From contig CP154954.1 in the NCBI GenBank assembly GCA_039621445.1, positions 27,803,735 to 27,867,734 of the forward strand: a DNA stretch of 64,000 bases, given 5' to 3'. The position numbers and the translations under genes are program-made. How positions within the stretch are numbered: position 1 is the first letter of the stretch; each line of letters opens with the position of its first letter. This DNA comes from Euglena gracilis (Eukaryota). A model generated the notes under the pieces. It worked only from the letters and a program-made list of their open reading frames with translations, was not told where the DNA came from and did not search any database. Of this stretch, positions 15,382 through 64,000 are shown in pieces.

Positions 15382-15950
15382 ATGGCCCCAGGGCCTTCTA
15401 AACATTTCAGAGAGGTGGTCCCAGGGCCCCAGACTTTTGCCATGATGCTCCCAGATTCTGCCCCAGGGCTCAACACATTTCAAACCAAATCTGGCACAGA
15501 AAAGTTTTTCAGAGATCTTGCCCCAGGGACCAAGGCCTCAGCCATGATGCTGTCCAATTTTGCCCCAAGGCTCAACACATTTCAAGCCAAAACTGGCACA
15601 GAAAAGTTTTTCACAGATGTGGCCCCAGGGCCCAAGGCTTTTGCCATGATGCTGTCAAATTTTGCCACAGGGCTCAACACTTTTCCAACTAAATCTGGCA
15701 CAGAAAAGTTTTTCAGAGATGTTGCCCCAGGGCCCAAGGCTTCAGCCAACACATTTCAAGCCAAAACTGGCACAGAAAAGTTTTTCACAGATGTGGCCCC
15801 AGGGCCCAAGGCTTCAGCCATGATGCTGTCAAATTTGGCCCCAGGGCTCAACACGTCTCAAGCCAAAACAGGCACGGAAAAGTGTTTCACAGATGTGGCT
15901 CCAGGGCCCAAGGCCGTAATGCCGTCAAATTTTGCCCCAGGGCTCAGCAC
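15382..15950 (+). repeat. In-frame 102-bp (34-aa) tandem repeat, about 5.5 copies
   Basis: CCAGGG(C/A)CC anchors at 15421, 15523, 15625, 15727, 15799 and 15901; unit APGPKAFAMMLSNFAPGLNTFQAKTGTEKFFTDV. Confidence 0.9.
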
Positions 15951-15984
15951 AATTCCAGCCGTAATAGCGTGGGGTTTCCACCTA

Positions 15985-16038
15985 CGGGGAAGAGGCGGGC
16001 TACTGTCGTGTGGCGACGTTGAAGAAAACCCTGGCCCA
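15985..16038 (+). other. 2A/StopGo peptide in element E
   Basis: RGRGGLLSCGDVEENPGP fits the D(V/I)ExNPGP consensus. Confidence 0.9.
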
Positions 16039-22200: not shown

Positions 22201-22780
22201 GACGTGTCCGAGACCCTCTCCAATGTCATAGAGGAATACGTCAGCAGGCCAACCATGGACAGCCTGTTCGCCACCCTCGCCTTCCCCAAACTGGTGCTTC
22301 GGACAGTCCAAAGTGCGGGGCGTGAGGCCGATGAGGACATCTCCACCGCGATCAGGCGGCGCGTCCAACTGTTCCGGCAAGGGGACAATGGAACGCTGAT
22401 GACAGCGCTGAGAAGCGCCACCCGCCTCCCACCAGCGTCCATCGAGACGCGGGCAGCCAAAAGAGCACGCACCGAGCCCGCCGCCATACCGGCCGCTGTT
22501 CTCCGCCGTGCCCGCACGTTGGTGGGGGAAGGGGCCCCTGCGAAGGCCCTGCAAGTTCTCTTGTTCGAAGGAACCCACCGCTCTTCCGATCCGGCTGTCT
22601 GGGTCAAACTGCAGGAGTTGCATCCCGCTGGACGCCCAGTAAGCCTCAATGCGCTGCCCGGCGAAGTACCACCGTTCCCGGATGGTAAACAGGTGCGGTG
22701 GAAGGAGCTCCTCAGGGACGCAATACTCCGTTTCCCTCGGACCTCCTCGCCGGGCCCTTCTGGTTTGCGCCCTTGCGCCT
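19246..22780 (-). mobile_element. CRE-like element F with an inverted 5' segment
   Basis: Minus strand 19246-~21750: VDLKNAFN, GTHQGCPLGP, WYLDDG, CAGC-H-C knuckle, RPADLLL, KHAKY, 3' motif. Plus strand ~21750-22780: 2A motif and N-terminal region up to SSPGPSGLRP. Confidence 0.9.
21921..21947 (+). other. 2A/StopGo core in element F (copy at 49065-49091)
   Basis: GSLLSCGDIESNPGP; the duplicate reads TGRGSLLSCGDIESNPGP. Confidence 0.9.
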
Positions 22781-22848
22781 TGCCGCCTTATTTTTTTTGG
22801 ATTACTCTGGTGTGCTGGGTTAGGCCGAAGTCCTGTGCGGGTGAGAGT

Positions 22849-28004: not shown

Positions 28005-28604
28005 TGTCGGCTGCCGCTGGCGTCGGCAGCCAAAAATTTCCCAGAAAATTCCCAAAAACCCCAGTAGGAATATCCAAAGCAAGTCAACCGCCACGCGAGT
28101 GGAATTGGAACACCAGCAAATTCCAGCAAGAATTTGAGAATTCGAATTGAGAATCACAAGAGCACAAAAGTCAATTGAAAATTGAAAGATCAAAAAGGAC
28201 AATTCAATTATCCAAGGAAATCAAGGCATTCATTTCCACATTCTTTCTCCCACTCAACACCTGAATTCAAAGGTACTTGCCCACCCTCTCAAGCCCCAGG
28301 TTTGTTGTGCTCTGCTGTTTGATCCTAAGTAGGTGGGTTGGTTTTGTCCTTGCTCACCTTTTGATCCAAATGTTTGAAAAGGCAAAACAGTGGAGGCTAA
28401 AAACGATCCTACGCGGGGAGACAGGGGGACCTGGGTCGGGGGGGCACACCTCACCCCCATTACCGCCTGTGGATTTATTTGAAAACGGGGCCCAACTTGC
28501 CAAAGGCCCTGGCCTGAGCCCACCAGGGCCAGAAAAGGGAAATTGTGGCCCCAGCGAAAGCAGCAGCCCCCCCGGGCGAGCAGGGTCCCCCAAGACCCCC
28601 AACA
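28005..28604 (+). repeat. Array LTR2 (600 bp)
   Basis: PPT before, PBS after; appears identical to LTR1 by eye. Confidence 0.85.
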
Positions 28605-29677
28605 TGGTACGCAGAGGTGGCTTCACTGACTCTGTCAGTGAAGAATTTTTAGATTCTGTTGATGACAAAGAATTCAAGGAATACAGTGACCAATTCAAAT
28701 TGTTGGGAATTGAATTCAGTGATACCCAAACAGAGGAACAAAGAAAAAGGGAGGCTGAACTTCTGGCGTCTCAGAGGGAGTTTTGGAAACTCAGATGTGA
28801 AGCAGCCATTGGACATTCTCATGGCCCTGACTCATCTTCTCCATGTCAATCTTGTAAACCGTCAGGGGTAAGCCCAACAAGCTCACTGCCAGGAGAACCT
28901 GAAGATAAACAAGAAAGTTTTGACCCTTGTCCAAATGTTTTGCTAATGAGAGTTGTGCGGTGTGAATCTGAATCCGGACAGCTGAGTGTCAAATCAGACA
29001 GTGTGGAAACTTCAGAGGTCGCAAAACCTGAAACTTTTTATGACCCTTGGGATGAGTGGTGGCAAAAAGTTGAGGCAGGTATCACAGAATTGTTTTCAAA
29101 CACTTTTTCTCTGAACGAGAGGCTGACGAAACTGGAGGAAGTGCCCAGCCAAAGTGAGTCCAGCCACTTGGAGGGACGGATGGCTGAAATTGAAACCCGT
29201 CTGAGAAATTTGGCAGATGGTTTTCATGACCTTTTGACACGAACTTGCAGTGAAATTGAACACCGTTTTTCTGAAAGCATCCAGTCCCTGTGTGAGAAGG
29301 GCGAGGCTCTGTCAAAACGGCTGGATAGTGAAGAAAAGATTCTGGAGGAACGGCTGAAAATGTTTGAAATCACTGAAAAGTTACAGCCCAGTGAAAAATT
29401 TCCAAGTCCAGAAAATTTTGTGCCTGTGAACCTGACTTCTGGACATGTCACAAATTTGCAGCCGTCATCAGTGTCTTCTGAGAAATCTTCCTCAGATTTA
29501 GCCGCACAGCCAAGAAAATTCAGACAGACAAAAAAATTCTGCAGGCCTGCCAAAAGCAGTTGGAACGACTTTCAGTTTTTGAGACCAAGTTGGTTTCAAG
29601 ATTGGTGGGGTTGGGACTGGCATTTAAATCCCTGGAACAGCTGGTGGTGGTTTCCACCGCATCAGTGGTGGTGGTGA
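28604..29677 (+). CDS. Unknown 357-aa protein (coiled-coil-like middle, Trp-rich C-terminus); intact in unit 2, broken in the other units
   Basis: First true ATG downstream of the LTR body within open frame 28277-29677; heptad-like LEGRMAEIETRLRNL...LEERLKM; homologous frames at ~23448, 35094, 40380 and 45489. Confidence 0.55.
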   Translation: MVRRGGFTDSVSEEFLDSVDDKEFKEYSDQFKLLGIEFSDTQTEEQRKREAELLASQREFWKLRCEAAIGHSHGPDSSSPCQSCKPSGVSPTSSLPGEPEDKQESFDPCPNVLLMRVVRCESESGQLSVKSDSVETSEVAKPETFYDPWDEWWQKVEAGITELFSNTFSLNERLTKLEEVPSQSESSHLEGRMAEIETRLRNLADGFHDLLTRTCSEIEHRFSESIQSLCEKGEALSKRLDSEEKILEERLKMFEITEKLQPSEKFPSPENFVPVNLTSGHVTNLQPSSVSSEKSSSDLAAQPRKFRQTKKFCRPAKSSWNDFQFLRPSWFQDWWGWDWHLNPWNSWWWFPPHQWWW

Positions 29678-45489: not shown

Positions 45490-47293
45490 TGGTACGCAGA
45501 GGTGGCTTCACTGACTCCGTCAGTGAAGAATTTTTGGAATCAGTCGATGACAAATCTCAATTGCAAAGTCTTCCAGTGGAAGTTCTGCAGGGTTTGTTCA
45601 AGGTTGGTGTTCTGTGGGCTTTAATTGTGGGTTCTCCTGACGATCCAGTGCAATCACACTGAAAAGTTTGGAATGCAGAATAAATCACATTGAAAAATTT
45701 TGGCAGGCTTTGTCACGTGAGCCCATCCACCCAGAGGGACAGGACACAGAAACAGATTTTTTGACTGGAAACTCAAAGTGGATTATTAACAAGATTCAGT
45801 CCCTGAATGTTGAGGGCGAGGCTCTGACGAAACAGCTGAAAGAAGTGACAGATTCATTGGGAAAGGCAGAAATGGAAATAGGAAGGTTGACTGAGCAAAT
45901 TAAAATGTTGGAACTGCAAATCACCGAAAAGTTGCAGCCCAGTGAAAAATTTCCAAGTCCAGAAAATTTTGTGCCTGTGAACCTGACTTCTGGACATGTC
46001 ACAAATTTGCAGCCGTCATTAGCGTCTTCTGAAAAATCTTCCTCAGATTTTGCCGCACAGCCAAGAAAATTCAGACAGACGAAAAAATTCTGGAGGCCTG
46101 TCAAAAACAGTTGGAATAACTTTCAATTTTCGAGACCAAGTTGGTTTCATGATTGGCGGGGTTGGGACTGGTACAAAAATCACTGGAACAGCTGGGGGTG
46201 GTTTCCACCGAATCAATGGTGGTGGTGATTTTCTTTCAGCATAGGTCTAACCACTGACTGGCACCGCACAGCACTTTACAGTGATCAGTATGTTTTTGTG
46301 GTTTGTTTGTGGCTTTGTGATTTTTGTTTCGTACTTCCTTTGTGTGATCTGGTCGGAGGCAGATGCGTAATCAGCCAGAAGTTTAAATCTGGATTTTCAG
46401 TTCACAGAGTTTGGCTTATGGAAAAACTGCCAAGTCAAACATTTTTGAATCTGGTTTCTGGGGTGCATGTTTCTCCCCAGTTGCTTTCCACTTAAATGGA
46501 GACGCCCAGCCACGATGCTTGGGAATTTCTCCTAGTGTTCAGGCAGCCAGATCAACGATATTCAGTTTCAGAGTTTTCAGTTTTCGGTTGTCCCAAATGT
46601 CATTTGGGGTGGGGCACGGGGTGGACATGTGTCACCATCCCAGACGGGGACAAATCAGACATTTCAGGTTGGATTTTTGTTTGTGTTTTTGCTGGTCCTT
46701 TCTGTCACGGGACAGTTTTTCCAGAGAGCAACTTACCCCCGGACAGGGACATACGTTGGAGAATCGGCACAGTTTTTTGGGATTTCTCAGTCCAGTTTCA
46801 TTGTGGTTTTCGAGTGTGGCAGCCCAGCAGTCCTGTGGCAGGTTTTATCTGGGTTTTTGCCAAGTCCTGAGGTAGATGGGAGACCTCTGATGACCACTCG
46901 AACCAAAAAGTTTTCGGGAAAGCGCGCAAAGAGGGGTTCCAAGGGTGGGGCTAGACCCAGGCAAGGAATAAACACCCCTGTGGCCACCCATCTAAGGGCT
47001 CAGGAAAGGTTTCAATTTTCAGTCTTGGGAACCAAGGTGGATTAACCCCAGGAGGAAAAGACACCCCCGAGGAAAATTCATTTACGGGCCCATCATCATT
47101 GGTCCAGTTTTTCAGTGAAAAATCTGTTGATCTGTGGGTTGCACTTTCTGCGGCAATTTTTCAGCTGTGGAGTTTGCTTGAGGGAGAAAAACTCAGAAGT
47201 GGTGGGACGCCTCACAATGCAAAACTCCTGAGGGTAATTTTTACAGTTTGAGGGTTGTTTGAGCAGTTTTCGTGTAACCCATTTGATGGATTG

Positions 47294-49994
47294 GATGTCT
47301 ACCGCGGTCGGTTTCCCGTCTTGCCATGTTGCCAGCAACAGGTCCGCTGGTCGCAGGGAGGCGTCTGGCTGGTTTGGTACTGGCACCTCGCGTTGGACAC
47401 TCTGGCCGTTCGCGGACAGGAGGTTGAATAAGGCTTCCTGAACGGCGTTGTGTCGGCTTGCAAAGTTGTTCCGAATGCAGCACATGTCGTGATCCCCGTG
47501 GATGTCTGCCACAGAATGGCACCCCGCGCACGTGGTTGGCGTGTCAGCCAGGGGCAGCCCAAGGCACCACTTTAGGCCAAGGCAGTAGTCGGCGGGCTCA
47601 ATCACCGTGTGCGGAGCCTCATTGGGGGCTGCTGCCATCCAGCCGTGGCCGATACCGTTGAGCTGATCCATAAGACGTGTCTGGTCCCTTGCAGACCACG
47701 TGGCGATGAGGGCGTCCACATGGGCCTTGGATAGTTGGGTCTGCCACCATTTCTGCGAGGTGTCATTTGCCGATGCAGAGGCGAAGGCTGCTGATGCTGT
47801 CAGCCGGTTGCTCTCAGGGTGACGGGTGCCGAGGACGGAGCCAAGGTCACTGGCGGCTTGCTGGCAGAGCCGGTCGTCCGGGGCGGCCGCGTAGCTTGGA
47901 CATGCGACCCGCTTATGTCCATGTGTGTAGAACTGGCACAGGGCGGCGGTACGGGCTGCTGCTTGGTGGGAGGCGGGAATACGAAGGCCACACCCACCTT
48001 GTGACAGCGGTAGCGAGGCCTGCAGGCGGTGGTCTGTGCTGAGGGCTTGGCCGATGATGTCCTTAAAGGCACCGAAGATCGTCTCACTGCACCGAATCAC
48101 TTCACCCTGCGCCTGGTAGGGATCAGAGGCGCGCAGGAGGTGGTTAACTCTGCAGCCGTCCAGTCAAGACCTCAGGATGTGGTGCGCCAGCTGGGGGTCA
48201 GTGACCGAGGTGACTAGGTCCGCAGCCTGTTCCAGCTTGGTTGTTGCCTCCGTCCATGCTGCCACTGTGTGCCCTGCCGTGGTTGGGAAGTCGACGGGGC
48301 AGCCCAGGACAGTGATCCCAGAGCCCTCGACCCAGGGTACAACTTGAACCTTCTCGCGGTCAGGGAGTGCGCCAGCAGCCGGACCCCATACGACGCATTT
48401 CGCCGGGTTCAATTGGACCCCGTTGCGTGCGCCTTCGGTCCGCAGGAACTCGAGGCACTTCTGCAAAGCCCAGGGCTCACCGACAAGCACCCCATCATCC
48501 AGGTACCATGAGGACCAGAGCAACTCTGCTTGCTGGCTGATGGTCTCGCTGATGGTGTGGAGGCCCACTGCAAAGCCGATGGGTCCCAGGGGGCAACCCT
48601 GGTGTGTGCCTCTCGTGGAGTGGAGCACGCGTCCTCCGCTGAACAACGGTGCCGGCTGGCCGTAGGCGAAGCGCAGGTAGTTGAAAAGCGCTGGAGTGCG
48701 CGTTTGCACTTCTTGTAGAAGGACATTTCTGTCCGGTGTGTTGAAGGCGTTCTTCAGGTCCACCTGAAGAATGGCCCAGTTCCCCTGCGGATCCAGTTTC
48801 CGGACCAGACTTTGGGTTGCCATGGCGACGGATTCGGACGCATTGGGGACCCCAACCCCTACCTGCAGGGGACTCAGCCGGCCCACTTAGTCCTTGGCGG
48901 CGCCGGTGTGTAGGAGGGCTTTCCCAACCAATCGCCGAAGGGGAATCGCGCTTACCTGCCGTGACTCCCCGGTGCACCGTGGACCACATTATTATCAACC
49001 TGGTGGACAACTCCCCTATTGCCGAGCGCCCACCAAGACGGGCCGAGGGAGCCTCTTGTCCTGCGGGGACATTGAAAGCAACCCAGGTCCGCCGGGAGGC
49101 AGAAAGAGGTCAGCCACGTCGGTTGTCGTGTCCGCGGAGGCGCCTCGTGACAGCACAAAACGATTTAGCACACCCAGCTGACGACACACCCATGGCTGTG
49201 GTGGTCGACCAAAGCGGAAAGAACTCTGACCTCCGTCACGGTGGCCCGCCCGGAATCACCATCCCGCCCCAGCCGGCCAACCTCCAGGAGGTCTTCCTCT
49301 GCCGCGCAAACACGGTCCTTCATGTGCCTGCGGCCAACCAACGTGACGTGTCCGAGACCCTCTCCAATGTCATAGAGGAATACGTCAGCAGGCCAACCAT
49401 GGACAGCCTGTTCGCCACCCTCGCCTTCCTCAAACTGGTGCTTCGGACAGTCCAAAGTGCGGGGCGTGAGGCCGATGAGGACATCTCCACCGCGATCAGG
49501 CGGCGCGTCCAACTGTTCCGGCAAGGGGACAATGGAACGCTGATGACAGAGCTGAGAAACGCCACCCGTCTCCCACCAGCGTCCATCGAGACGCGGGCAG
49601 CCAAAAGAGCACGCACCGAGCCCGCCGCCATACCGGCCGCTGTTCTCCGCCGTGCCTGCACGTTGGTGGGGGAAGGGGCCCCTGCGAAGGCCCTGCAAGT
49701 TCTCTTGTTCGAAGGAACCCACCGCTCTTCCGATCCGGCTGTCTGGGTGAAACTGCAGGAGTTGCATCCCGCTGGACGCCCAGTAAGCCTTGATGCGCTG
49801 CCCGGCGAAGTACCACCGTTCCCAGATGGTAAACAGGTGCGGTGGAAGGAGCTCCTCAGGGACGCAATACTCCGTTTCCCTCGGACCTCCTCGCCGGGCC
49901 CTTCTGGTTTGCGCCCTTGCGCCTTGCCGCCTTATTTTTTTTTTGGATTACTCTGGTGTGCTGGGTTAGGCCGAAGTCCTGTGCAGGTGAGAGT
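47294..49994. repeat. Direct duplicate of 20151-22848 (part of element F plus the 3' tip of G)
   Basis: Near-identical, including the F inversion junction; scattered SNPs and indels. Confidence 0.95.
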
Positions 49995-51571
49995 AATGCA
50001 CATACCAAGTTCTCAAGGAGGGAGGGGGGGAGAATCGAGGGTGAGGTGAAGGGCGGTGAAGGGCACAGTACGGAGGGGGGATTGCGAGTGTGAGAGGAAA
50101 GTGTACAGCGGCTGGGAAGGTTTAATAGAACGGCCATGGAGACTGTTGAGTGTTGAGGTTGTGGCAGCGACAAGTTTAGGTTTTGGGGAGTTGGCTCAGG
50201 GAAGGCTCTGTTTTCAGTGCGGTAAGGGTTTGGACGTCATTGTAGACTTGGTCCATTCGTTGCAAGGTGTTTTTTGCTTGTTTTTTGGTTTAATTGGTCT
50301 TGTGGTTAGTTATGCGTACGGTTGGCGTGTCATGGAGCCTTCGGCCCTGTGGTCAAATTGCTCACTCCGTTTCATATGGGCAATGGGTGGTGGGTTACAC
50401 CGTTCCAGATGGCTCCGCCACAGTTCCCCAAGCCTCAGGCGGGCCAGTTCTCTTGCCAATGTCTGACACAGGTTGCTGATGGTTGGGTACCTTTGTTTAC
50501 TTTTTTGACAAGTTGTGGATGGTTTAAGGACAATTTTTTGTTCTGGGTCTAGGAGTCGTAGTGGTCTTCTTTACAGACAATACGGCTGGTGTATGGTGTT
50601 GGTTACTTCTGGATCTGTGTCGTTGCCTGCATACCGTCCCCAGATTACTTGTCGCGCGATCTCTCGCGCAACAGTTATTGATAGAAGTTGCCATGTGTCT
50701 GCTTCAGTTTTGCGTTTTGACCATGCATCTTGTTGACCGAGGAGAAGTTTCATCAGTGTTGACATTAAGGATAGCGCTTCTTGGCCTAGGCTGCCATAGC
50801 AGTCAACAACAAATGGAAGGCAGGTCCATCCCATCCTCCCACAGGTGGCGTCATATTTTGAATGTTTTTCTTTCTCTTGGCGTTCATACCATTCAGTTAG
50901 TTCAGCTGTGTCACGCAACGGTCTGTACGGTGCTGCTGTGTGTCTCACTGTGATGTCCACTGCTCCAGGACCATTGGCGTCAAGTCTGCTGATGAGGACA
51001 TCGCCCGGGCGTGTTCTCTCTGGACCTCCTTGTTCTTTTTTTTGCTGTAAACCCAGCATCATGTGCCAGTTGGAACACAAAGTCCTGGATTGCACCATGT
51101 CGCCGCGTGATGCCACTTGAGCTGCAGCATACAAGGTGATTACCCAGGTTGACCATTGGCTTGGTGCAGCGTGGGCACGTTGATCCCGTTGGTGGGCAAA
51201 CTGGTGCTCCCAGTGACCACTTTAGAAATCCTTTGAATTCGGCAGAAGCGACCAATGTTTTCAGTCCACAGGATGGTGTGACAGAAGCCCAGGCCATTGC
51301 GTGGGGCCGCTGTTGGCTTGCGAACCGGACGGCGTCTTGACCGTGAAGGTTGGAGGATAATACCTTTTGTCGTTGTTTCGCAAAGCATTCACCCCACCAC
51401 TTCTGTTGAATGTGAGGGCTTTGGGCTTCGTTCAGGAGTGATACATCCGCGGCCCATGTTTGCGTTGGGGGAGTTCCTTCGAGGACGGAGTTGGCAGAGG
51501 ACAGGCACTCCGCAGTGTCTTTCGGTACTCCTCTGCCAGGCCCAGGGTGCGTCTGCCATTGCTGACAAACG

Positions 51572-53137
51572 TCACAATGCCGGATATACGTGCTGGGAGA
51601 CGTTCCCGTGATGGGTCCCGAATTCCGAGTCCGCCGAGGGTAGGGTGGCCTGAGCCCATTGGTTGTCATCGATTGGGGATCCAACAATGTTGCTCATTGT
51701 GTTCCTGATTTCTTTGGTCAACAGAGCACATGCGTCATTTGCCTGCCCCAGTTCTGTTGCACGCAGGAGGTCATTAACTTTGCAAGCATCTAGGCAGGTT
51801 CGTAAGAGGCAGAACTGAATATGGGCTTGCGGCAGGTTCAAAAGTGCCCGGCAAGCTTTCTGCACACCTGTTGCACGTTCAGCCCACACTTCCCCCGCAA
51901 AGCCTCCACTTTGTGGATGGCATACCGGGATTCCCAGGGCCCGTATACCAGAATTAGGAGAGTAGTTCACGATTGGGACTGCACGAAGTGGGCTGTTTTG
52001 CGGCATTTCAGCACGATTGGCTTCTGTTGCTGCAGGGCCCCACAGGCGGCATTTTTTTGCGTTGAGGTGTATGCCTAGTAGCGTCCCCTGTCGTTGAATT
52101 TCTGTAATTGCTGCATGTAATTGTGGGAGGGTTCCCAGGATGTGTCCATCATCCAAATACCACAATTGCAGTGGCACCACGTCTTGCAAGGACTCGACGA
52201 GAGATTGCAACGCCAAGGCGAATCCGGCTGGGCCACAAGGGTCCCCTTGTTGTACGCCAGAGGCACTCCGAAGGTGTGATGACCCACAAAAGAGCGGGCT
52301 GTGTTCGACGTAGCAACTCTCGAACCAAACGTACGCCTCCGGGCAGCGTTTAGCCACTTCAGCAACGACTGTCTTTCTTTTCACACAATTAAAAGCATTG
52401 CTGAAATCTACCTGTAACAAAGCCCAGGTGTTGTCCTGTTGCATGTGCAGGTGATTCACTTCTTGCTGCAGTCCCATAGCAATGAGTTCACATGCCCCCT
52501 GGACCCCTACACCGCATTGTAGTGGCTGCAGTTCTTTAAGGAGGTCCCTGATTTTGGGGTGCCTCATCAAATATTTGCCCACCAATCGGCGCAGGCATTC
52601 CCCAGCTGCAATTGGTCGCGTGCCATCCTTCTTTGGGTCAGGAATGGGGTTGGCATTGCCAAGCTCATCAAGGTTTTCGCTTGGATTGCAGGGTTTTCGA
52701 AGAGGAGTCAAACGGGCACCAGCGAAAACCCATGCCGCAGAGTTGTGAATTCCGTTTGTCAAACATGTTCGGACGAATTGGTCCAAAATTGTGAGGAGTT
52801 GTTCTGATTGTGTCCCCAGGAGATCAGAGAGTATGTCTTTAAGATGATCTGGACGAAGTCCAGACGGTCCTGGTGAGGACTCCTTCGGGAAAGACATGAC
52901 TGCTTTCCGTATTTCAATTAGGCGCTCCCTGGTTGCATCTTCACTGAGATCGAATTCGAGGCGAGGGAAGTCCGGAGGCAGATTTTGCCTTCCAGGTTGG
53001 GGTTCAGGAGGGTGCAAGGCAGCCAACCGTTCCAAGATTAGCGGGTCATCTGCATCTTGGATTCCATCAGAAGTTGGCATGCGGCAGGCTTTACTGACCG
53101 CTCCATGGCTGACAAGGCTTTGAACACGGTTGCACAA
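51572..53137 (-). pseudogene. Reverse transcriptase domain of G1
   Basis: SSPGPSGLR, GTRPIAAGECLRRLV, QCGVGV, VDFSNAFN, GVQQGDPCGP, WYLDDG, LNAKKC. Confidence 0.95.
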
Positions 53138-53939
53138 TCTTTATTGGCTTTCTGCATCGAATTTTTTTGTCTGACTTCGTGTTCTCTTCTTTGGGTTTTG
53201 TGCATCGCGAATTTGGCGAGTCTCATCCCACGAAGCTTCTGTGAACCGGTTGAGGTAGGCATTGGCTCCCTCAGAAATTTTCTGTCCAACTGCAGCCCAA
53301 TGGCTTTTCCCGCTCCGCTTCAGTGGAGCCAGCACAGCTTTTGGGAAGCACCAAAGTGTGTGTAGGGTTTCCTATCCTGGTTTTGATACAAAGCGACTGA
53401 GGGTGCTGCAAAAGGCGAGCCCAACGTTTCGCAACGCTCCCCGTGGGATATGGACCAACGTGCCTCGCGTGTCTTGGGAAATTTCTTCCCAAGATGGCTG
53501 CAGTGGTGGGCAAGGTTGCGAGAAGGGAGTGACTTGCAGCGTATCAGCGTTCGTCGAGGATTGCGCTGGTGCTACAGCCACGGGGTGCTGCGGCCTTCGA
53601 CCACTTTGGCACTGTTGCTCTTGCCCTTGTGGTGAGGACGGCACAAAATTCTCAATCATCCCCTGGCCCTGCGGCGCACACCCGTGAATTTCGGAAATCG
53701 CTGAGCGCACCCGGGACTCTAGTTCGTCAATTACCATGATTTGTTCAGCTGCGGGTGCCCCGGGGCCCCCGTTCAAACTGGGAAACGGCATTATAGCCTG
53801 GGACAAAGTAGGCGAGAACAGCGGCGTCGAGTGCATTGGAAACCAAGATCCAAGGAGCGGTAGCTCCGTCAGCCACAGCAGAGGTCTGTGCGGCTGAGGC
53901 CATTTCAACGTCCTCCTGCTGGGGAGGGCGGGTTTTTGT

Positions 53940-55302
53940 GGGACCTGGGTTGCTTTCAATGTCGCCACAACTGGCAAGGCTTTTGCCCCTGCCACACCAG
54001 GGGGGACTGTACCCATACCGCGTTTTTTCCTGGTCAATCGGTTGCCGTAAGTGGTTGGCGTGCCCTGGGGCCACATTAGACAACTTAGAAGGCCCTGGGG
54101 CCATAGTGCAAGTCGGTCGTCGGCAATGGGGCCGGGTGCTAGGTCGCAGGGATAGGGGTCCTTCACGTGGGGTTATCCGGTGAATAGGTCCTGGCTCAAG
54201 CTGAACGTCACCACAAAGTGTGACATCTTGGTGTGTGGGCCTCTCGGTTTTGACAGCGTGGTTAGGGCTTATGTCACCTTGTTGGTCACCGCGTTGGCAG
54301 TTTGGTTGTCTTTGTGCTGTCCGTCGTGCCCTCCGGACGTGACGGTCAACAAAAAAACTGCTGATCTTGTCGGACGTAACAAGGCCATGATGTCCAGGAT
54401 ATCAACGGTGTGTACATTCAATGGGGAGAGGTCGGACGAGGAGGGCTCCGTTGGAGGTACTTTGGGGAAAGTGCTCTCGGCCAGAGAACGTTGGGTAGTG
54501 TCATTTGGTGAATGGGGGGCAGGTAGAAATGAAAAGCCTCGCCGATGTTGCATACTTCGGACCATAAACAAGTCAGCAACCACATAATGGCATGCACACT
54601 CGATGGGGAGTCGTGACGTGGTGGTCGATGTGGCCATAGCCCTATGAGCACAAACAGAACTCCTCTCAAAACTTCCCAACATTCGGTGAGCTCATAGACG
54701 GTAGTGTCCTGAACCAGGACATCGGAAGGGAAGGCGTCTCGGAACGTTTGAAGTTCTGCATCCACCTCTTGAAGGCTCGCCAGCAGTCTGTGCCGAACGA
54801 AGTTTTCTTGAAGTCCCCTGGAGACAGGGATTGTCGGTCTTTCCATGGTGGCCAGACGGAAGTAGATGGGTCCTGGTTGTGTTTGGACGTCACCATGGGT
54901 GGTGATTCGTTCCCCCCTACTTGTCGGCTGGTGTCCTTCTGAAAACTTTTCCCGGGTTTGTTCTACGGTGTATCCTCGGCTTGTTACAGAGTGTACTTTT
55001 GCTGTCTCAGTAGATGGAAATACTGTGGCTGAAAAAACAGGGCAGGTTTCCCTGTGGTGCAGGCACCAACCTGCCGAGGCAGTGATGGTTTCAATGTCAC
55101 ACAAAGTGCATTTCAGCCAGTATGTAGCTTTGGGAAGAAGTGTACGGGAGGAGCCATCGGGGCCTTGCCGCAATGGTATTTCGGCCTTGATCCGAAAGAA
55201 AGCAGTCATGTTCATGGCAACAAGTTGGTCCAATAGATCCATGACTTCACCACAGGGTCCATCAAATGCCGTCGGCGGGCCTGGATTGGTTTCCACATCA
55301 CC
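53940..55302 (-). other. Four 2A-like motifs in G1
   Basis: GDVETNPGP 55276-55302; GDVQTQPGP 54868-54894; GDVQLEPGP 54186-54212; GDIESNPGP 53940-53966. Confidence 0.85.
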
Positions 55303-57343
55303 CATTGTTGTCAGGGAATCACCTCGCCCCGTCTTCAGAAATGCGTCTTCCGGCTTCTTCCCCCCGTGTGGGCCTGCAGAGCAGAGGTGTATGTTGCCGA
55401 CTGTTTCTGCCATGTGGAATTTTTTTGTGGCAGCACAAGAGTAATAGTCCGACAGGGAGTCATTTGAGTCATCAAGATCGCTGGCGGTCCATACAGACGG
55501 GGAAAGACGATCAGCCTATCCAACCTCACACGCAAACTGTAACGGTCTGGGCATGTCATACATCTGCCAAATTCTTGGGCAGTATCGCCAGGCAATGGGC
55601 AGGGTTGGCTCTCGGGAGGGTGTCTGCCTCTTCTTTGTCCTCGGGGGGCGGACTGCTTCTGCTGCAGGCACTTTTTGTTTGATTTTTTGTGCGATAGCTC
55701 GGCGTACTTTTTCTATGTGCAACATGTCCACTCCCTCTTCACGTTGTTCGTCTGGTCGGTGTTGATGAAGAATCTGGGCGATTCTGATCCGTTCCAGGAT
55801 GAGGTTCTTTTTTGGTGGGGGGGGGCGATTGCACAACGTTTGTCGCTGCCAGTGGCAACGTGAGTTTCATGTCTGTGTGCACCATTTTTTGTGACTGCCA
55901 AATGTCCACTGTTCTGCCAATGTCGACCCACTTTTCCTGAATGTTGGCCAGTTTTCTGGCGACCATCTCGTGAAATAAAATGCCTCCTGCTTGCTGTCTC
56001 ATGCGCCTTCTCCAAAAAAATTCTTCCCTGAAGGACCGAAACTCTGGTGTTTCCCAAACTGGGACCCCTTCAAGGGGGGTGTTGGGTGGGGAGGCTGGTA
56101 AATCTGTTGCCTGGGGGGGTCTTGCCATTGAAAGGGGCTGGGTTCCTCCTGCAGGATCACTGTGCCCAGTTTTGCCCACTGTGTGCCATCAAACATGGTG
56201 GGTTTTGTTGGAATTTTAAAAATGCGAAATGGTGGGCCTGGCCCCCCCCCTCTCTTGCAGGGGGGCTGATATTGGGGGGCTGGTGCTGAGATCTTTTGGG
56301 GTTGCATTTGGCTGGGGTTGATGATCCTCCTCTTTTGGGTGGGGGGGGGGTTGTTTTGCAGACTCCCTTTGATACGGAGTTGCCTTGGGATGAAATTCTT
56401 GATCCACTTGTTTTACTGGGTGAAGGTATTGTGTTGAGTTGTCCCCTCTTTGGGGGGGACTTTGTGAGACAAAAGACAAAGGGAAAGCTGCAGGCAGAAG
56501 AGCACATTGGAAGGCTGATGGTGATGCCAGTACCACATCTGGGATTAAGGGTGCTGGCAGGCTAGGGTTGTGTAATGGTGTTGGGGGGTACTTCTGAACT
56601 CTGGCCTGTGCTGAAAAAGGCTCTGAGGCTTCTGAAGAGTTCAGCCTCTCTCCTTCTCTGCTCCTCTTCTCTGATCCAATTCTTCCTCTGGTCATCTTCT
56701 CTGCTCCAGTTTGATTGCAGTGGTTGCTGAGATTGCTGGGGTTCACCCCAAAGGTTGGTCTGTGATGGAATGTACATTTCTATGATTGATGTGACAGATG
56801 GACATACTTGATTTCTGCCCACTGGTGGGCATTGGAATGGGTTGTTCACTGGAATGCCCACTGATGGGCTTGACTGTGGAATGCCCACTGATGGGCTTGC
56901 TGTACAGTGGGGCCCCAGACTCACTTGCTGATGGAGCTGGGGCTGAGGAGAACTCTGTTGAGATATATGATAACTGGGTCGACCTCTCTGCCATGGGGGC
57001 TTGTAATCTCTTCCAAACCTTCTCTGTAGGTACTCTTCATGCTCTTCCCTCTCTTGCCATGTCCTCTTCTTTCTCTGTGAGCTGCTGTGTTGACTTTCTC
57101 TGTCACTATGTACAGGGCGGTCAGCAATGAGTCGTTGTGCCACAGCAGTGGTTAGCACAGGCACCAACAGCGGTAACAACATCTTGGCCAGCAGCTCCAA
57201 CTGTCCAGTGTCCACTGCAACAGTAGGTGTACTTGAAGGGTTGGTTGTGGTAGCAGCTTGGTTGACAAGGGGTGTATTGTCTTGAGCCTTGGGGTCTTCT
57301 GGAGGGCCATCCGGCCACTTTGCAGCCATGGTGATTATGCAGA

Positions 57344-57368
57344 CGAAAAAAAATAGACACTCAGAAAG
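57344..57368 (-). other. Euglenid spliced-leader exon copy at the 5' end of G1
   Basis: CTTTCTGAGTGTCTATTTTTTTTCG matches 25 of the 26 nt of the Euglena gracilis SL as I recall it; followed by TCTGCATAATCACC-ATG, not by an SL-RNA intron. Confidence 0.9.
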
Positions 57369-57451
57369 CCTTATGAGTGTCTTATGAGAATTTTTTTTTG
57401 GAAATTGGAACTCTCCGACCTGTCTTCAGCGGCCTAGGAGGATCACTCCGA

Positions 57452-60400
57452 GCCGAAGTCCTGTGCGGGTGAGAGTAATGCACATACCAAGTTCTCAGGG
57501 TGGGAGAGGCGAGAGTCGAAGGTGAAATAGAAGGGCGGTGAGGGGCACAGTACGGAGGGGAGATAGCGAGTGTGAGAGGAAAGTGTACAGCGGCAGGGAA
57601 GGTTCAATAGAACGGCCACGGGGACTGTTGAGTGTTGAGGTTGTGGCAGCGACAAGTTTATGTTTGGGTTTAGGGGAGTTGGCGCAGGGAAGGCTCTGTT
57701 TTCAGTGCGGTAAGGGTTTGGACGTGTTTTTAGTCTTGTGGTTGGTTATGCGTACGGTTGGTGTGTCATGGAGCCTTCGGCCCTGTGGTCAAATTGCTTA
57801 CTCCGTCTCATATGGGCAATGGGTGGTGGGATCCACCGTTCCAGATGGCTCCACCACTGTTCCTCAAGCCAATTGACAGCCACTTCTCTTGTCAATGTGG
57901 GACACAGGTTGCCGATGGTTGGGTACCGTTGTTTACTTTTTTGACAAGTTATGAATGGTTTAAGGACAATTGTTTGTTCTGGGTCTAGGGGTCGTAGTGG
58001 TCTTCTTTACAGACAATACGGCTGGTGTATGGTGTTGGTTACGTCTGGATCTGTGTCGTTGCCTGCATACCGTCCCCAGATTACTTGTCGCGCGATCTCT
58101 CGCGCAACAGTGATTGATAGAAGTTGCCATGTGTCGGCCTCAGTTTTGCGTTTTGACCATGCATCTTGTTGACCGAGGAGAAGCTTCATCAGTGTTGACA
58201 TTAAGGATAGCGCTTCTTGGCCTAAGCCGCCATAGCAGTCAACAACAAATGGAATGCAGGTCCATCCCATCCTCCCACAGGTGGCGTCATATTTTGAATG
58301 TTTTTCCTTCTCTTGGCGTTCATACCATTCAGTTAGTTCAGCTGTGTCACGCAACGGTCTGTACGGTGCTGCTGTGTGTCTCACTGTGATATCCACTGCT
58401 CCAGGACCATTGGCGTCAAGTCTGCTGATGAGCACATCGCCCGGGCGTGTTCTCTCTAGACCTCCTTGTTCTTTTTTTGCTGTAAACCCAGCATCATGTG
58501 CCAGTTGGAACACAAAGTCCTGGATTGCACCATGTCGCCGCGTGATGCCATTTGAGCTGCAGCATACAAGGTGATTACCCAGGTTGACCATTGGCTTGGT
58601 GCAGCGTGGGCACGTTGATCACGTTGGTGGGCAAACTGGTGCTCCCAGTGACCACTTTAGAAATCCTTTGAATTCGGCAGAAGCGACCAATGTTTTCAGT
58701 CCAGAGGATGGTGTGACAGAAGCCCAGGCCATTGCGTGGGGCCGCTGTTGGCTTGCGAACCGGACGGCGTCTTGACCGTGAATGTTGGAGGATAATACCT
58801 TTTGTCGTTGTTTCGCAAAGCATTCACCCCACCACTTCTGTTGAATGTGAGGGCTTTGGGCTTCGTTCAAGAGTGATACATCCGCGGCCCATGTGTGCGT
58901 TGGGGGAGTTCCTTCGAGGATGGAGTTGGCAGAGGACAGGCACTCCGCAGTGTCTTTCGGTACTCCTCGGTCTGCCAGGCCCAGGGTGCGTCTGCCATTG
59001 CTGACAAACGTCACAATGCCGGATATCCGTGCTGGGAGACGTTCCCGTGATGGGTTCCGAATTCCGAGTCCGCCATGACGCACAGGTAGGGTGGCCTGAG
59101 CCCATTGGTTGTCATCGATGGGGGATCCAACAATGTTGCTCATTGTGTTCCTGATTTCTTTGGTCAACAAAGCACATGCGTCATTTGCCTGCCCCAGTTC
59201 TGTTGCACGCAGGAGGTCATTAACTTTGCATGCATCTAGGCAGGTTCGTAAGAGGCAGAACTGAATATAGGCCTGCGGCAGGTTCAAAAGGGCCCGGCAA
59301 GCTTTTGCACACTTGTTGCACGTTCAGCCCACACTTCCCCCGCAAAGCCTCCACTTTGTGGATAGCATACCGGGATCCCAGGGCCCGTATACCAGAATCG
59401 GGGGAGTATTTCACGATTGGGACTGCACGAAGTGGGCTGTTTTGCGGCATTTCAGCACGATTGGCTTCTGTTGCTGCAGGGCCCCACAGGCGGCATTTTT
59501 TTGCGTTGAGGTGTATGCCTAGTAGCGTCCCCTGTCGTTGAATTTCTGTAATTGCTGCATGTAATTGTGGGAGGGTTCCCAGGATGTGTCCATCATCCAA
59601 ATACCACAATTGGAGTGGAACCACGTCTTGCAAGGACTCAACGAGAGATTGCAGCGCCAAGGCGAATCCGGCTGGGCCACAAGGGTCCCCTTGTTGTACG
59701 CCAGAGGCACTCCGAAGGTGTGATGACCCACAAAAGAGCGGGCTGTGTTCGACGTAGCAACTCTCGAACCAAACGTACGCCTCCGGGCAGCGTTTAGCCA
59801 CTTCAGCAACGACTGTCTTTCTTTTCACGCAATTAAAAGCATTGCTGAAATCTACCTGTAACAAAGCCTAGGTGCTGTCCTGTTGCATGTGCAGGTGATT
59901 TACTTCTTGCTGCAGTCCCATAGCAATGAGTTCACATGCCCCCTGGACCCCTACACCGCATTGTAGTGGCTGCAGTTCTTTAAGGTGGTCCCTGATTTTG
60001 GGGTGCCTCATCAAATATTTGCCCACCAATCGGCGCAGGCATTCCCCAGCTGCAATTGGTCGCGTGCCATCCTTCTTTGGGTCAGGAATGGGGTTGGCAT
60101 TGCCAAGCTCATCAAGGTTTTCGCTTGGATTGCAGGGTTTTCGAAGAGGAGTCAAACGGGCACCAGCGAAAATCCATGCCACTGAGTTGTGAATTCCGTT
60201 TGTCAAACATGTTCGGATGAATTGGTCCAAAATTGTGAGGAGTTGTTCAGATTGTGTCCCCAGGGGATCAGAGAGCATGTCTTTGAGACGATCTGGACGA
60301 AGTCCAAACGGTCCTGGTGAGGACTCCTTCGGGAATGACATGACTGCTTTCCGTATTTCAATTAGGCGCTCCCTGGTTGCATCTTCACTGAGATCGAATT

Positions 60401-63400
60401 CGAGGCGAGGGAAGTCCGGAGGCAGATTTTGCCTTCCAGGTTGGGGTTCAGGAGGGTGCAAGGCAGCCAACCGTTCCAAGATTAGCGGGTCATCTGCATC
60501 TTGGATTCCATCAGAAGTCAGCATGCGGCAGGCTTTACTGACCGCCCCATGGCTGACAAGGCTTTGAACACGGTTGCACAATCTTTCTTAACTTTCTGCT
60601 TCGAAATTTTTTGTCTGACTTCGTGTTCTCTTCTTTGGGTTTTGTGCATCGCGAATTTGGCGAGTCTCATCCCACGAATCTTCTGTGGACCGGTTGAGGT
60701 AGGCATTGGCTCTCTCAGTAATTTTCCGTCCAACTGCAGCCCAATGGCTTTTCCCGCTGCGCTTCAATGGAGCAAGCACAGCTTTTGGGAAGCACCAAAG
60801 TGCGTGTAGGGTCTCCCATCCTGGCTTGGACACAAAGCGACTGAGGGTGCTGCAAAAGGCGAGCCCAACGTTTCGCAACGCTCACCGTGGGATATGGACC
60901 AACGTGCCTCGACTGTCTTGGGAAATTTCTTCCCAAGATGGCTGAAGTGGTGGGCAAGGTTGCGAGAAGGGAGTGACTTGCAGCGTATCAGCGTTCGTCG
61001 AGGATTGCGCTGGTGCTGGGGCCACGGGGGGCTGCGGCCTTCGACCATTTAGGCACTCTTGCTCTTGCCCTTGTGGTGAGGGTAGGCGAGAACAGCGGCG
61101 TCGAGTGCATTGGAAACCAAGATCCAAGGAGTGGTCGCTCCGTCGGCGGCACAGCAGAGGTCTGTGCGGCTGAGGCCATTTCAACGTCCTCCTGCTGGGG
61201 AGGGCGGGTTTTTGTGGGACCTGGGTTGCTTTCAATGTCGCCACAACTGGCAAGGCTTTTACCCCTGCCACACCAGGGGGGACTGTACCCATACCGCGTT
61301 TTTTCCTGGTCAATCAGTTGCCGTACATGGTTGGCGTGCCCTGGGGCCACATTAGACAACTTAGAAGGCCCTGGGGCCAGAGGGCAAGTCGGTCGTCGGC
61401 AATGGGGCCGGGTGCTAGGTCGCAGGGATAGGGGTCCTTCACGTGGGGTTATCCGGTGAATAGGTCCCGGCTGGAGCTGAACGTCACCACAAAGTGTGAC
61501 ATCTTGGTGTGTGGGCGTCTCGGCTATGACAGCGTCGTTAGGGCTTATGTCACCGTGTTGGTCACCTCGTTGGTAGTTTGGTTGTCTTTGTGCTGTCCGT
61601 CGTGCCCTCCGGACATGACGGTCAACTGAAACTACTGATCTTGTCGGACGTAAGAAGGCCATGATGTCCAGGATATCAACGGTGTGCACATTCAATGGGG
61701 AGAGGTCGGACGAGGAGGGCTCCGTTGGGGGTACTCTGGGGAAAGTGCCTCTCGGCCGGAGAACGTTGGTAGTGTCATTAGGTGAATAGGGGGCAGGTAG
61801 AGGTGAAAGGCCTCGCCGATGTTGCATACTTCGGACCATAAACAAGTCAGCAACCACATAATGGCATGCACACTCGATGGGGAGTCGTGACGTGGTGGTC
61901 GATGTGGCCATAGCCCTATGAGCACAAACAGAACTCCTCTCAAAACTTCCCAACATTCGGTGAGCTCATAGACGGTAGTGTCCTGAACCAGGACATCGGA
62001 AGGGAAGGCGTCTCGGAAAGTTTGAAGTTCTGCATTCACCTCTTGAAGGCTCGCCAGCAATCTGTGCCGAACGAAGTTTTCTTGAAGTCCCCTGGAGACA
62101 GGGATTGTCGGTCTTTCCATGGTGGCCAGACGGAAGTAGATGGGTCCTGGTTGTGTTTGGACGTCACCATGGGTGGTGATTCGTTCCCCCCTTCAAGTCG
62201 GCTGGTGTCCTGCTGAAAACTTTTCCCGGGTTTGTTCTGCCGTGTATCCTCGGCTTGTTACGGAGTGTACTTTTGCTATCTCAGTAGATGGAAATACTGT
62301 GGCTGAAAAAAACAGGGCAGGTTTCCCTGTGGTGCAAGCACCAACCTGCCGAGGCAGTGATGGTTTCAATGTCACACAAAGTGCATTTCAGTCAGTATGT
62401 AGCTTTGGGAAGAAGTGATTGGGAGGAGCCATCGGGGCCTTTCCGCAACGGTAGTTCGGCCTTGATCCGAAAGAAATCAGTCATGTTCATGGCAACAAGT
62501 TGGTCCAATAGATCCATGACTTCACCACAGGGGCCATTAACTGCCGTCAGCGGGCCTGGATTGGTTTCCACATCACCCATTGTTGTCAGGGAATCACCTC
62601 GCCCCGTCTTCAGAAATGCGTCTTCCGGATTCTTCCCCCCGTGTGGGCTTGCAGAGCGGGGGTGTATGTTGCCGACTGTTTCTGCCATGTGGAATTTTTT
62701 TTGTGCCAGCACAAGAGTAATAGTCCGACAGGGAGTCATTTGAGTCATCAAGATCGCTGGCGGTCCATACAGACGGGGAAAGACGATCAGCCAATCCAAC
62801 CTCACACGCAAACTGTAACGGTCTGGGCATGTCTTCCATCTGCCAAATTCTTGGGCAGTATCGCCAGGCAATGGGCAGGGTTGGTTCTCGGGAGGGTGTC
62901 AGCCTCTTCTTTGTCCTCGGGGGGCAGACTGCTTCTGCTGCAGGCACTTTTTGTTTGATTTTTTGTGCGATAGCTCGGCGTACTTTATCTATGTGCGACA
63001 TGTCCACTCCTTCCTCACGTTGTTCCTCTGGTCGGTATTGATGAAGAATCTGGGCGATTCTGATCCGTTCCAGGATGAGGTTCTTTTTTGGTGGGGGGGG
63101 GGGGCGATTGCACAACGTTTGGCGCTGCCAGTGGCAACGTGAGTTTCATGTCTGTGTGCACCATTTTTTGTGACTGCCGAATGTCCACTGTTCTGCCGAT
63201 GTCGACCCACTTTTCCTGAATAATGGCCAGTTTTCTGGCAACCATCTCGTGAAATAAAATGCCTCCTGCTTGCTGTCTCATGCGCCTTCTCCAAAAAAAT
63301 TCTTCCCTGAGGGACCGAAACTCTGGTGTTTCCCAAACTGGGACCCCTTCAAGGGGGGTGTTGGGTGGGGAGGCTGGTAAATCTGTTGCCTGGGGGGGGT

Positions 63401-63526
63401 CTTGCCATTGAAAGGGGCTGGGTTCCTCCTGCAGGATCACTGTGCCCAGTTTGGCCCACTGTGTGCCATCAAACGTGGTGGGTTTTGTTGGAATTTTAAA
63501 AATGCGAAACGGTGGACCTGGCCCCC
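57452..63526 (-). mobile_element. 5'-truncated CRE-like retrotransposon G2 (same family as G1)
   Basis: Colinear with 49970-56246; 2A-like motifs at 62551-62577, 62142-62168, 61462-61488 and 61216-61242; RT 59220-60581; RLE 58007-58591; A9 tail at 57391-57399. Confidence 0.92.
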
Positions 63527-63528
63527 AG

Positions 63529-63957
63529 TGTACGTCCCACCCCGGCTTTTCTACTTAAGGTTTTCCCCTGAAAAGCCCGTGGGGGGAGTAACAATAAAGT
63601 TTGCTTCCCTTTTCACCTTTTGAATGCAAAGCACACAAGCAGAAGAATTGGTGGGACCGCAGTCCCTTATATGATTGTGACTTTTGCTCTTTGGAGCTTT
63701 GTAAAAGAAAGAAAGAAAACTTCTATTCAAATGGGACTTCGCCCTCAGAATTCTAAAACAGAATTGCAAAGCACCAAACCCTGTAACCTTGAATTAGGAA
63801 CCAGTTACTTTCGCTAAGCGTTCGCTAGCTCCGAGATTCTCTCTTTGTCTTATGGTTTTAACCATGCCACTGTGTACGGCCCGGCCGTAGCCAGGTTGTA
63901 GGCCGTAGCCCCTTGTATCTGGTACACAGTGCCATGGCAGTATGGCTGCCTTGTACA
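63529..63957 (-). repeat. LTR of X-family element X3 (~429 bp)
   Basis: Minus strand GGGAGGGGGAtg|TGTAC...GACGTACA|ct; similar to the X1/X2 LTR 3' halves. An alternative start is at 63926. Confidence 0.6.
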
Positions 63958-64000
63958 CATCCCCCTCCCAGGGCTCTGCCCGATTTCCCTTCTGGACCAG

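Follow-up and report, generated by a model that had tools for sequence, protein, structure and literature searches.

Four 2A/StopGo-like motifs in two reading-frame blocks ahead of the reverse transcriptase of an R2-like non-LTR retrotransposon in Euglena gracilis

At canonical 2A (StopGo) sequences the ribosome releases the nascent chain after ...NPG and restarts at the proline that follows. A 2A-like sequence was reportedly described in trypanosome retrotransposons without long terminal repeats (non-LTR) by Heras in 2006. The papers cited below are drawn on as excerpts of their text. In long interspersed nuclear elements (LINEs) with an apurinic endonuclease (APE), 2A-like sequences occur at one site each (L1Tc, Ingi and the Rex1, Crack, L2, L2A and CR1 clades; Odon et al. 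2013, PMC3708506). The class-A core is (D/G/C/N)(V/I)ExNPGP, with positions 14 and 16 (p14, p16) almost exclusively E and N, and the substitution E14Q keeps 56% or 26% of activity (PMC12846837); in another study no substitution of D12, E14 or N16 stayed above the activity threshold except E14H (bioRxiv 10.64898/2026.09.24.754024). Reporter abundance was lowered by 70% of the ORF1p and 59% of the ORF2p 2A-like cases from retrotransposons (PMC13405545). Elements with a reverse transcriptase (RT), mostly non-LTR-like, account for 330 of 1547 class-A contigs from viromes, and one avihepatovirus has five 2A sites (both bioRxiv 10.64898/2026.09.24.754024); a 2025 survey gives at most three 2A instances in any eukaryotic gene (PMC12338488). 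By these excerpts, 2A sequences in APE-type LINEs, in Dualen/RandI and in many RT-element contigs are already known. The present analysis concerns an element designated G, two copies of which (G1 and G2) lie on the minus strand of a 64,000-nt stretch of the Euglena gracilis genome (contig CP154954.1 of assembly GCA_039621445.1, positions 27,803,735 to 27,867,734; this whole stretch is called the window). Four 2A-like motifs precede the RT in both copies and fall into two blocks that lie in different reading frames (Table 1).

The window was scanned in all six frames with a loose core ([DG][VI][EQ]x[NQE]PGP) and a strict core (D[VI]ExNPGP). Eleven loose matches were found, seven of them strict, and eight of the eleven lay on the minus strand as two sets of four, one in G1 and one in G2. 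Chance expectation, from 200 first-order Markov simulations of the window, was a mean of 0.005 loose and 0 strict matches, with any loose match in 1 of the 200. A sequence-only reading of the window had reported four such motifs ahead of the RT in each copy, two canonical and two variant, with an RG-x-x-L/I tract before three of them; the scan recovered all four in both copies at the positions given there, and the contexts agreed, the tract being present upstream of motifs 1, 2 and 4 and absent upstream of motif 3. Class-A sites call for a hydrophobic or Leu-rich stretch, often with RG-x-x-L, in the 20 or so residues before the core. The class-A core octapeptide is matched by motifs 1 (DVETNPGP) and 4 (DIESNPGP) in G1 and G2. 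The pairing of E at p14 with N (rarely H) at p16 is lost in motif 2 (DVQTQPGP), which is unchanged across G1, G2 and a third copy, P0001, and in motif 3 (DVQLEPGP or DVQLQPGP). By BLASTX, the motif 4 region of G1 matched the 2A sites of the related proteins P0039, P0041, P0115, P0010 and P0045. The RT lies downstream (3') of all four motifs (RVT_1 within 53140..51575). The motif sequences support the view that motifs 1 to 4 are genuine 2A/StopGo-type peptides; because both near-invariant positions, E14 and N16, are changed in motifs 2 and 3, these two are most likely 2A-derived, weak or dead descendants of canonical sites.

The RT domain was identified as RVT_1 (Pfam, E 1.6e-13) in the same G1 open reading frame (ORF), 53140..51575. 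Downstream of it, the intact C-terminal ORF of G2 (58618..58010) carries the motifs CPRC...H...CC, RRHG, E, RPGD, VDITV and K..KY of a CCHC knuckle and restriction-like endonuclease (RLE), and matched a profile of 30 relatives with an hhalign probability of 99.9 (E 1.7e-34). That profile in turn matched the R2 structures 9nl3_A (E 5.9e-42) and 9dou_A (E 3.1e-41) over profile positions 303-1040, the alignment being co-linear from RT through CCHC to RLE by way of CCHC, RHN, E, PD, DVT and K; its best matches in the Protein Data Bank (PDB) were R2 proteins, followed by LINE-1 ORF2p, and a PDB search with the single relative P0003 gave no match. No Pfam match to an APE domain was obtained, RVT_1 being the sole family found in nine pieces of G1, two of G2 and four relatives. 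On the RVT_1 match, the CCHC/RLE profile match, the R2 structure matches and the lack of an APE match, G is classified as a non-LTR retrotransposon of the RLE (R2-like) type. The sequence-only reading had named this type, and the RT together with the CCHC/PD-(D/E)XK nuclease and the R2 profile matches bear it out.

Copies of G were surveyed in contigs of the public sequencing samples X1, X3, X15 and X20 that aligned to the element at 85% likeness or more; figures for differences from these contigs rest on the 40 of 526 letter differences and 12 of 41 insertions or deletions (indels) that were listed. Motifs 1 and 2 lie together in a 365-aa ORF of G1 (55515..54421), and their frame remains open for no fewer than some 190 codons on the upstream side and some 150 on the downstream side. 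The third copy, P0001 (444 aa, 92% identical), comes from a public protein set and reads across the G1 stop at 55518-55516. At letters 55517, 53373 and 53143 all covering contigs differ from G1, and its three stops at 55518-55516, 53374-53372 and 53143-53141 are therefore private to that copy. Motifs 3 and 4 share the open 325-aa ORF of G2 (61965..60991), and past motif 4 the G2 frame gives the residues TE.PLLGSWFPMHSTPLFSPTL, the same as the RT frame of G1. Each window copy bears a deletion in the link between motif 4 and the RT (Table 1). The GG behind 53873 was present in 4111.5 of 4474.1 of the contig depth in X1, 3220.7 of 3220.7 in X3, 4.86 of 4.86 in X15 and 0 of 4.8 in X20, and the bin 53565-53835 in the region of the 170-nt segment had the same contig depth as the neighbouring bins. 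Since the GG is in the majority, the segment stands at neighbour depth and the G1 stops are private, motif 4 is, in the family-majority state so reconstructed, in frame with the RT-RLE.

Motif blocks 1-2 and 3-4 are in different frames in G1 and in G2. The sequence-only reading had spaced the motifs within one frame; two of the lengths it gave, 136 codons from motif 1 to motif 2 and 82 from motif 3 to motif 4, are correct. From the motif 2 Pro to the motif 3 Gly, G1 has 682 nt and G2 has 680 nt, and neither length is divisible by three. The difference lies in a run at 54357-54351, where G1 has T7 and G2 has TTTCAG, 2 nt fewer; with 681 nt the two motifs would share a frame, yet that frame would meet the TGA at 54420-54418, with which the motif 1-2 frame ends in both copies. 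The G2-type variant of the T-run was seen in four contigs of X1 and three of X3, with loose ends at 54350. With the G2 run in place, a -1 frame can be read without a stop from the position that matches 54691 into motif 3, and no majority indel between 54421 and 54691 was among those listed. A check of the family for a single frame came out in parts: motifs 1-2 (G1, P0001) and motifs 3-4 (G2) are each joined in one frame, as is motif 4 with the RT in the majority state; the two blocks are in different frames with a common TGA, which places a single ORF in doubt. Farther upstream, at the C-run 55817..55825, the letter at 55817 is omitted in about 20% of the depth (X1 4308/22090, X3 12700/54686). 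In the region 5' of motif 1, G1 changes frame at least three times and the codon-usage signal is weak. The first product of about 680 aa that had been proposed for this region is not supported in G1, where several frame changes would be needed to read it; the majority differences listed resolve these in part.

A programmed -1 frameshift at the junction of the two blocks was considered and rejected. The candidate slip site is C CCA AAG about 50 nt before the TGA in G1 and CCCAGAG in G2, and the 98 nt downstream folded worse than shuffled sequences (z +1.41 and +1.77), which leaves the idea unsupported.

Differences between G1 and G2 were sorted by frame. In the RT frame 13 were synonymous and 12 non-synonymous, and the off-frames there gave 4:19 and 7:14. 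Over the 123 codons that follow motif 2, counts were 5:3 for the motif frame and 1:4 and 1:6 for the off-frames (binomial P 0.023). The counts carry information on the RT and on these 123 codons, and elsewhere are too small. By these counts, G1-G2 divergence is partly under constraint. For the pieces between the 2A-like motifs, a comparison of this kind yielded a constraint signal after motif 2; the other pieces were near neutral, with small counts.

Relatives were collected as a set of 30 proteins, with the RT-side protein of G1 (two stops entered as X) as the query, and as 150 representatives from an exhaustive search with the RT ORF. In the 30-protein set, P0007 (991 aa) has three 2A cores in one ORF ahead of the RT, P0010 has two and P0009 one. 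Among the 150 representatives at least one strict core was found in 6 and at least two in 4; among those with 200 or more residues upstream of the RT the fractions were 6/38 and 4/38. Two cores were found in P0039, P0048 and P0182 (1602 aa), and P0115 has two back to back; the cores of P0041 read GNVHPHPGP, GDVEQHPGP and GDIESNPGP. All 2A motifs of the relatives lie upstream of the RT, and a C-terminal CCHC/RLE is present in P0039, P0041, P0044, P0045, P0009 and P0010. An N-terminal match to Pfam Dam (PF05869, cut-off 28.1 bits) was obtained for P0041 (31.5 bits), P0045 (28.3) and P0039 (27.3), and none for P0115, the fourth of the four scanned. P0039, P0041, P0045 and P0007 begin with a domain containing a W-x-NPPF motif, although P0007 had no Dam match at E 0.05. 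One to three 2A sites stand between the Dam-like domain and the RT-RLE in the relatives, where a small CxxC...(H/C)xxxC module directly precedes the last 2A. The equivalent module of G is placed before motif 2, so that motif 2 looks like the degenerate counterpart of a site that is canonical in the relatives. Because two or three 2A sites stand ahead of the RT-RLE in intact ORFs of distant relatives, often behind the Dam-like domain, the separation of accessory proteins from the RT-RLE by 2A sites looks like a trait of the wider RLE lineage. Neither a Dam-like methyltransferase domain nor the layout methyltransferase-2A-RT-RLE has, to our knowledge, been reported for LINEs, although no literature search was aimed at this point.

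Another decayed RLE-type element, E3, lies in the window at 15130-18510 (+). Its likely start is at CTMAPGPSK (15370-15402), followed by tandem repeats of about 25 aa (APG...GTEKFF), a canonical 2A (GDVEENPGP, 16015-16038) with a stop three codons later, an RT (16715-17383) and a CCHC/RLE region (17797-18510).

On balance, the active form of G, an element now largely decayed, was probably expressed as two 2A-containing translation units and not as one ORF of 2250 codons, because the motif pairs lie in different frames and are split by a family-level TGA and a variable T-run. At the canonical sites 1 and 4 the nascent chain would be released after ...NPG and the ribosome would restart at Pro. 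Release at site 1 would part a 136-aa Cys/His peptide from the protein encoded before it, and release at site 4 would separate a short leader peptide from the RT-RLE enzyme of about 1120 aa. The second unit may be reached by a stop followed by restart, by an internal start at MAPGPSK or by some recoding; the ATG at 54104-54102 of G1 is a possible internal start of the RT-encoding ORF, and G2 reads CPLAPGPSK at this site. Several observations weigh against two units so constituted. Motif 1 of P0001 reads GDVETNPGL, and P0001 is in frame across the C-run, a state held by about 20% of the depth. For the TGA, the T-run and the motif codons, the majority state was taken from their absence among the differences listed. 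A T6 run would join motifs 2 and 3 in one frame of 681 nt with the TGA alone between them, so a single ORF is one substitution and one slip away. Three regions have synonymous to non-synonymous counts close to neutrality, namely the part 5' of motif 1 (3:7, 0:4), the 136-aa peptide (3:8) and the interval from the T-run to motif 4 (6:11). Frame hints conflict around 54570-54450, codon usage favouring frame f0 from about 54570 and synonymous counts favouring frame f1 down to 54499. Both window copies are dead and no intact copy of the G family was seen; RNA support is weak, since the contigs on the element in X15 (a sample whose kind was guessed) and X20 (a metatranscriptome) may be DNA.

The sequence-only reading had derived five products from one ORF of about 2250 codons (57329-50571), and as a description of the copies present this is not borne out, given the frame offsets and the shared TGA. 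That G descends from an ancestral ORF of this extent with four working StopGo sites also appears unlikely. It would account for a motif 2-3 spacing that departs from the in-frame 681 nt by +1 in G1 and by -1 in G2 at the same T-run, but the in-frame TGA at 54420-54418 is common to both copies, and the indels listed hold no majority change in 54421-54691. Many other lesions are copy-private, and P0001 joins the frames across the C-run; about 80% of the depth nevertheless retains the +1 offset there, and the 5' 1.5 kb of G1 changes frame at least three times with a weak codon-usage signal. Relatives do carry two or three sites in single intact ORFs, including arrays in which H variants are mixed with a canonical site (P0041), whereas motifs 2 and 3 of G are each altered at two near-invariant positions.

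It is also conceivable, but improbable, that motif 4 alone matters. The RT-RLE ORF would then begin some 60 codons ahead of motif 4 with the conserved Met of MAPGPSK, much like the simpler sister element at 15370-18510, and everything upstream would be a chimeric leader or ORF1 assembled from 5' pieces of related elements, with motifs 1 to 3 as fossils. CTMAPGPSK occurs in E3 as well, at its 5' edge, and in the G1 (T7) state the Met is the first ATG of the motif 3-4 frame, but the Met is lost in G2. The degeneracy of motifs 2 and 3 and near-neutral substitution in most upstream pieces are as expected of fossils; motif 1, however, is fully canonical in both window copies and stands in a long open frame (with GDVETNPGL in P0001), the synonymous excess after motif 2 lies in the motif frame (5:3), and the entire 7.4 kb, its 5' part included, is amplified to similar depth. 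A further proposal, very unlikely on present comparisons though compatible with two translation units, is that the motifs, chiefly the Q variants, act as translational attenuators or stall sites that lower RT-RLE output and not as separators. Most retrotransposon-associated 2A-like peptides cut reporter protein abundance in the excerpted text of PMC13405545, but motifs 1 and 4 are canonical and have the RG-x-x-L context typical of efficient sites.

Table 1. Coordinates of element G and of its motifs and junctions within the window (E3 is the plus-strand element at 15130-18510)
Feature	Position	Strand	Remarks
G1, full-length decayed copy	57451..49970	-	self-BLAST and pairwise alignment; 5' end near 57368
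G2, 5'-truncated decayed copy	63526..57452	-	head-to-tail, directly upstream of G1 on the minus strand
G1 motif 1, GDVETNPGP	55302-55276	-	canonical core; preceded by GRGDSLTTM; six-frame scan
G1 motif 2, GDVQTQPGP	54894-54868	-	Q at p14 and Q at p16; preceded by SRGERITTH
G1 motif 3, GDVQLEPGP	54212-54186	-	Q at p14 and E at p16; preceded by THQDVTLC
G1 motif 4, GDIESNPGP	53966-53940	-	canonical core; preceded by GRGKSLASC; site that would free RT-RLE
G2 motif 1, GDVETNPGP	62577-62551	-	six-frame scan
G2 motif 2, GDVQTQPGP	62168-62142	-	out of frame with G2 motif 1 through a private 1-nt insertion near 62312
G2 motif 3, GDVQLQPGP	61488-61462	-	same 325-aa frame as G2 motif 4
G2 motif 4, GDIESNPGP	61242-61216	-	325-aa ORF 61965..60991
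C-run	55817..55825	-	C9 in G1, C12 in G2; upstream open frame offset +1 from the motif 1 frame
Junction of motif blocks	54351..54420	-	TGA 54420-54418 ends the motif 1-2 frame in both copies; ATG directly after
PTCTMAPGPSK	54084..54116	-	10/11 residues in common with E3 15370-15402 (+); TBLASTX and ORF context
Motif 4-RT link	53638..53873	-	2 nt missing from G1 behind 53873; segment 53638-53807 (170 nt) missing from G2
RT N-terminal conserved region and RT domain	51575..53623	-	G1 frame f0; BLASTX to relatives from 53623
CCHC zinc knuckle and RLE domain, G1	50574..51221	-	intact G2 counterpart 58010-58618

G1 and G2 are about 96% identical by self-BLAST and pairwise alignment. In G1 the putative start ATG is at 57329-57327, the stop of the RLE frame is at 50573-50571, and the 3' untranslated region runs to about 49970, where repeat X begins. 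Homology of G2 to G1 stops at 63526 (G1 equivalent 56246), and 63527-64000 is unique within the window; G2 being truncated, the 5' 1.2 kb of the element is present in one window copy only. The 3' ends of G2 (57369-57427) and G1 (49925-49969) on the minus strand share ...GGACTTCGGC and then differ in tails of 24-50 nt that finish in runs of A9 and A10. The marks of retroposition found were 5' truncation (G2), an A-rich 3' end and high copy number. The last of these was very high, with 3885 contigs on the element in X1 and 5293 in X3; contig depth was greater toward the 3' end, and coverage included the 5' part 56247-57368. In contigs of other copies the conserved 3' tail (to 57428) is followed by 21-40 letters that vary and include A-runs, and then by the conserved 5' end (57366-57369), from which head-to-tail arrays appear to be common. 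The leaf-litter metatranscriptome X20 (9% of sampled words) contained 30 contigs of the element, a count that does not establish transcription.

The peptides between the motifs were searched for function and for further copies. The 136-aa peptide after site 1 has the Cys/His pattern CxxC...HH...C. Pfam gave no match beyond RVT_1 in the nine G1 and two G2 pieces, and the ESM Atlas gave only chance-level matches below 0.9 when searched with the 136-aa peptide and no match to the 255-aa N-terminal ORF. When the six G1 peptides were compared with all fetched relatives by phmmer, the 2A motif itself and P0001 were the only matches. No Dam-like domain was found in the six-frame translation of the window with a hidden Markov model of four relatives. 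The 365-aa ORF retrieved P0001 only in the protein search, and none of its 22 pattern matches in a scan of metagenome contigs was confirmed; the 325-aa ORF of G2 had no match in the protein search. A scan of viral contigs with the relatives' profile yielded one locus (L001), which has no 2A motif in any frame. The idea that a messenger with a spliced leader (SL) serves the element found no support within the window, where Rfam gave 0 matches and no SL RNA family was found; an 8-letter spliced-leader word, present in two neighbouring copies (63885 and 63903) on the plus strand only, was not taken as evidence.

Repeat X is 2.7 kb long and occurs at 20151-22848 and 47294-49994 (+) in copies that are 99% identical and flank a tandem array. 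It carries GDIESNPGP at 21924-21947 and 49068-49091, has the N-terminal part of an RT protein in another frame and ends abruptly. With G, E3 and repeat X, at least three 2A-bearing RLE families are present in one 64-kb window. A further RLE-type element on the minus strand lies inside or adjoining repeat X (19821-22111 and 47096-48163), with an RT and the motifs CAGCH...CC, RHNA, RPAD and AVDIAV; no 2A motif was found in it. The tandem array (22849-47291, +) consists of five units of 5.1-6.5 kb, each with an ORF of up to 470 aa (for example 28265-29677) that encodes an acidic region resembling a coiled coil and has a W-rich end. ORFs that resemble gag and encode a CCHC knuckle (CFLCNKSGHMSRECP) lie in inverted orientation at 3-3479 (-) and 6937-7644 (+), where the inverted repeats 60-647 and 7066-7653 have 588-nt arms that are 78% complementary; they probably represent another retroelement pair.

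New here are an RLE-type family with four related motifs and intact relatives with two or three sites between accessory modules and the RT-RLE. These indicate that early-branching "single-ORF" LINEs can encode several proteins by means of StopGo, which bears on how ORF1-like functions arise in LINE evolution, and the natural Q/E variants at p14 and p16 are ready test cases for the limits of StopGo sequences. A bolder proposition, which we hold to be doubtful, is that this RLE-LINE lineage is picornavirus-like: up to four StopGo sites would divide one long translation unit, yielding a protein like ORF1, a small peptide that binds zinc, the RT-RLE and other accessory proteins, among them in relatives a Dam-like N6-adenine methyltransferase, with the Q/E variants functional on host ribosomes. 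If true, function with Q or E at p14/p16 would broaden the functional motif, and the array would be the largest 2A array in any cellular gene. Full-text searches of the literature found no paper tying 2A arrays to RLE-type elements or to a Dam-like domain; figures and supplements (Figure S1A of PMC12338488; Figure 10C and Supplemental Data 4 of the September 2026 preprint) may hold such cases.

The polyproteins of picornaviruses and other RNA viruses resemble the arrangement in G in that several StopGo sites partition one translation unit and in that tandem or close sites stand upstream of one protein (excerpts of PMC11512398). They differ in encoding capsid and RdRp genes, whereas G is a chromosomal retrotransposon with no viral protein homology in Pfam. 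In the RT-element contigs from viromes the active sites are "distributed across the ORFs", a pattern interpreted by the authors as polyprotein processing (bioRxiv 10.64898/2026.09.24.754024); the excerpted text does not state the element clade, nuclease type or number of sites per ORF, and Figure 10C or the supplements may already show arrays. Compared with R2 proteins (9nl3_A, 9dou_A, 9nl2_A, 8gh6_A), G lacks the N-terminal zinc-finger or Myb region, and the excerpts on R2 describe no 2A array; the order of RT, linker, CCHC and RLE is co-linear in both. The ORF2p of Dualen/RandI (Haematococcus and others, PMC13405545) likewise has a 2A between an accessory N-terminal domain, there DUB or PPR, and the RT of an early-branching RLE LINE. 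Dualen has an APE in addition, none of which was found in G, and multi-site arrays or Dam-like domains are not mentioned in the excerpts. APE-type LINEs, as excerpted, resemble G in placing a class-A 2A core within the N-terminal portion of the ORF that encodes the RT, a core proposed to free N-terminal functions from the RT protein, and decayed variants at the key E are common among them, CR1-20_NV showing the same change from ES to QL. Those elements combine an APE with one site each, whereas G combines an RLE-type nuclease with four motifs, and its relatives with two or three.

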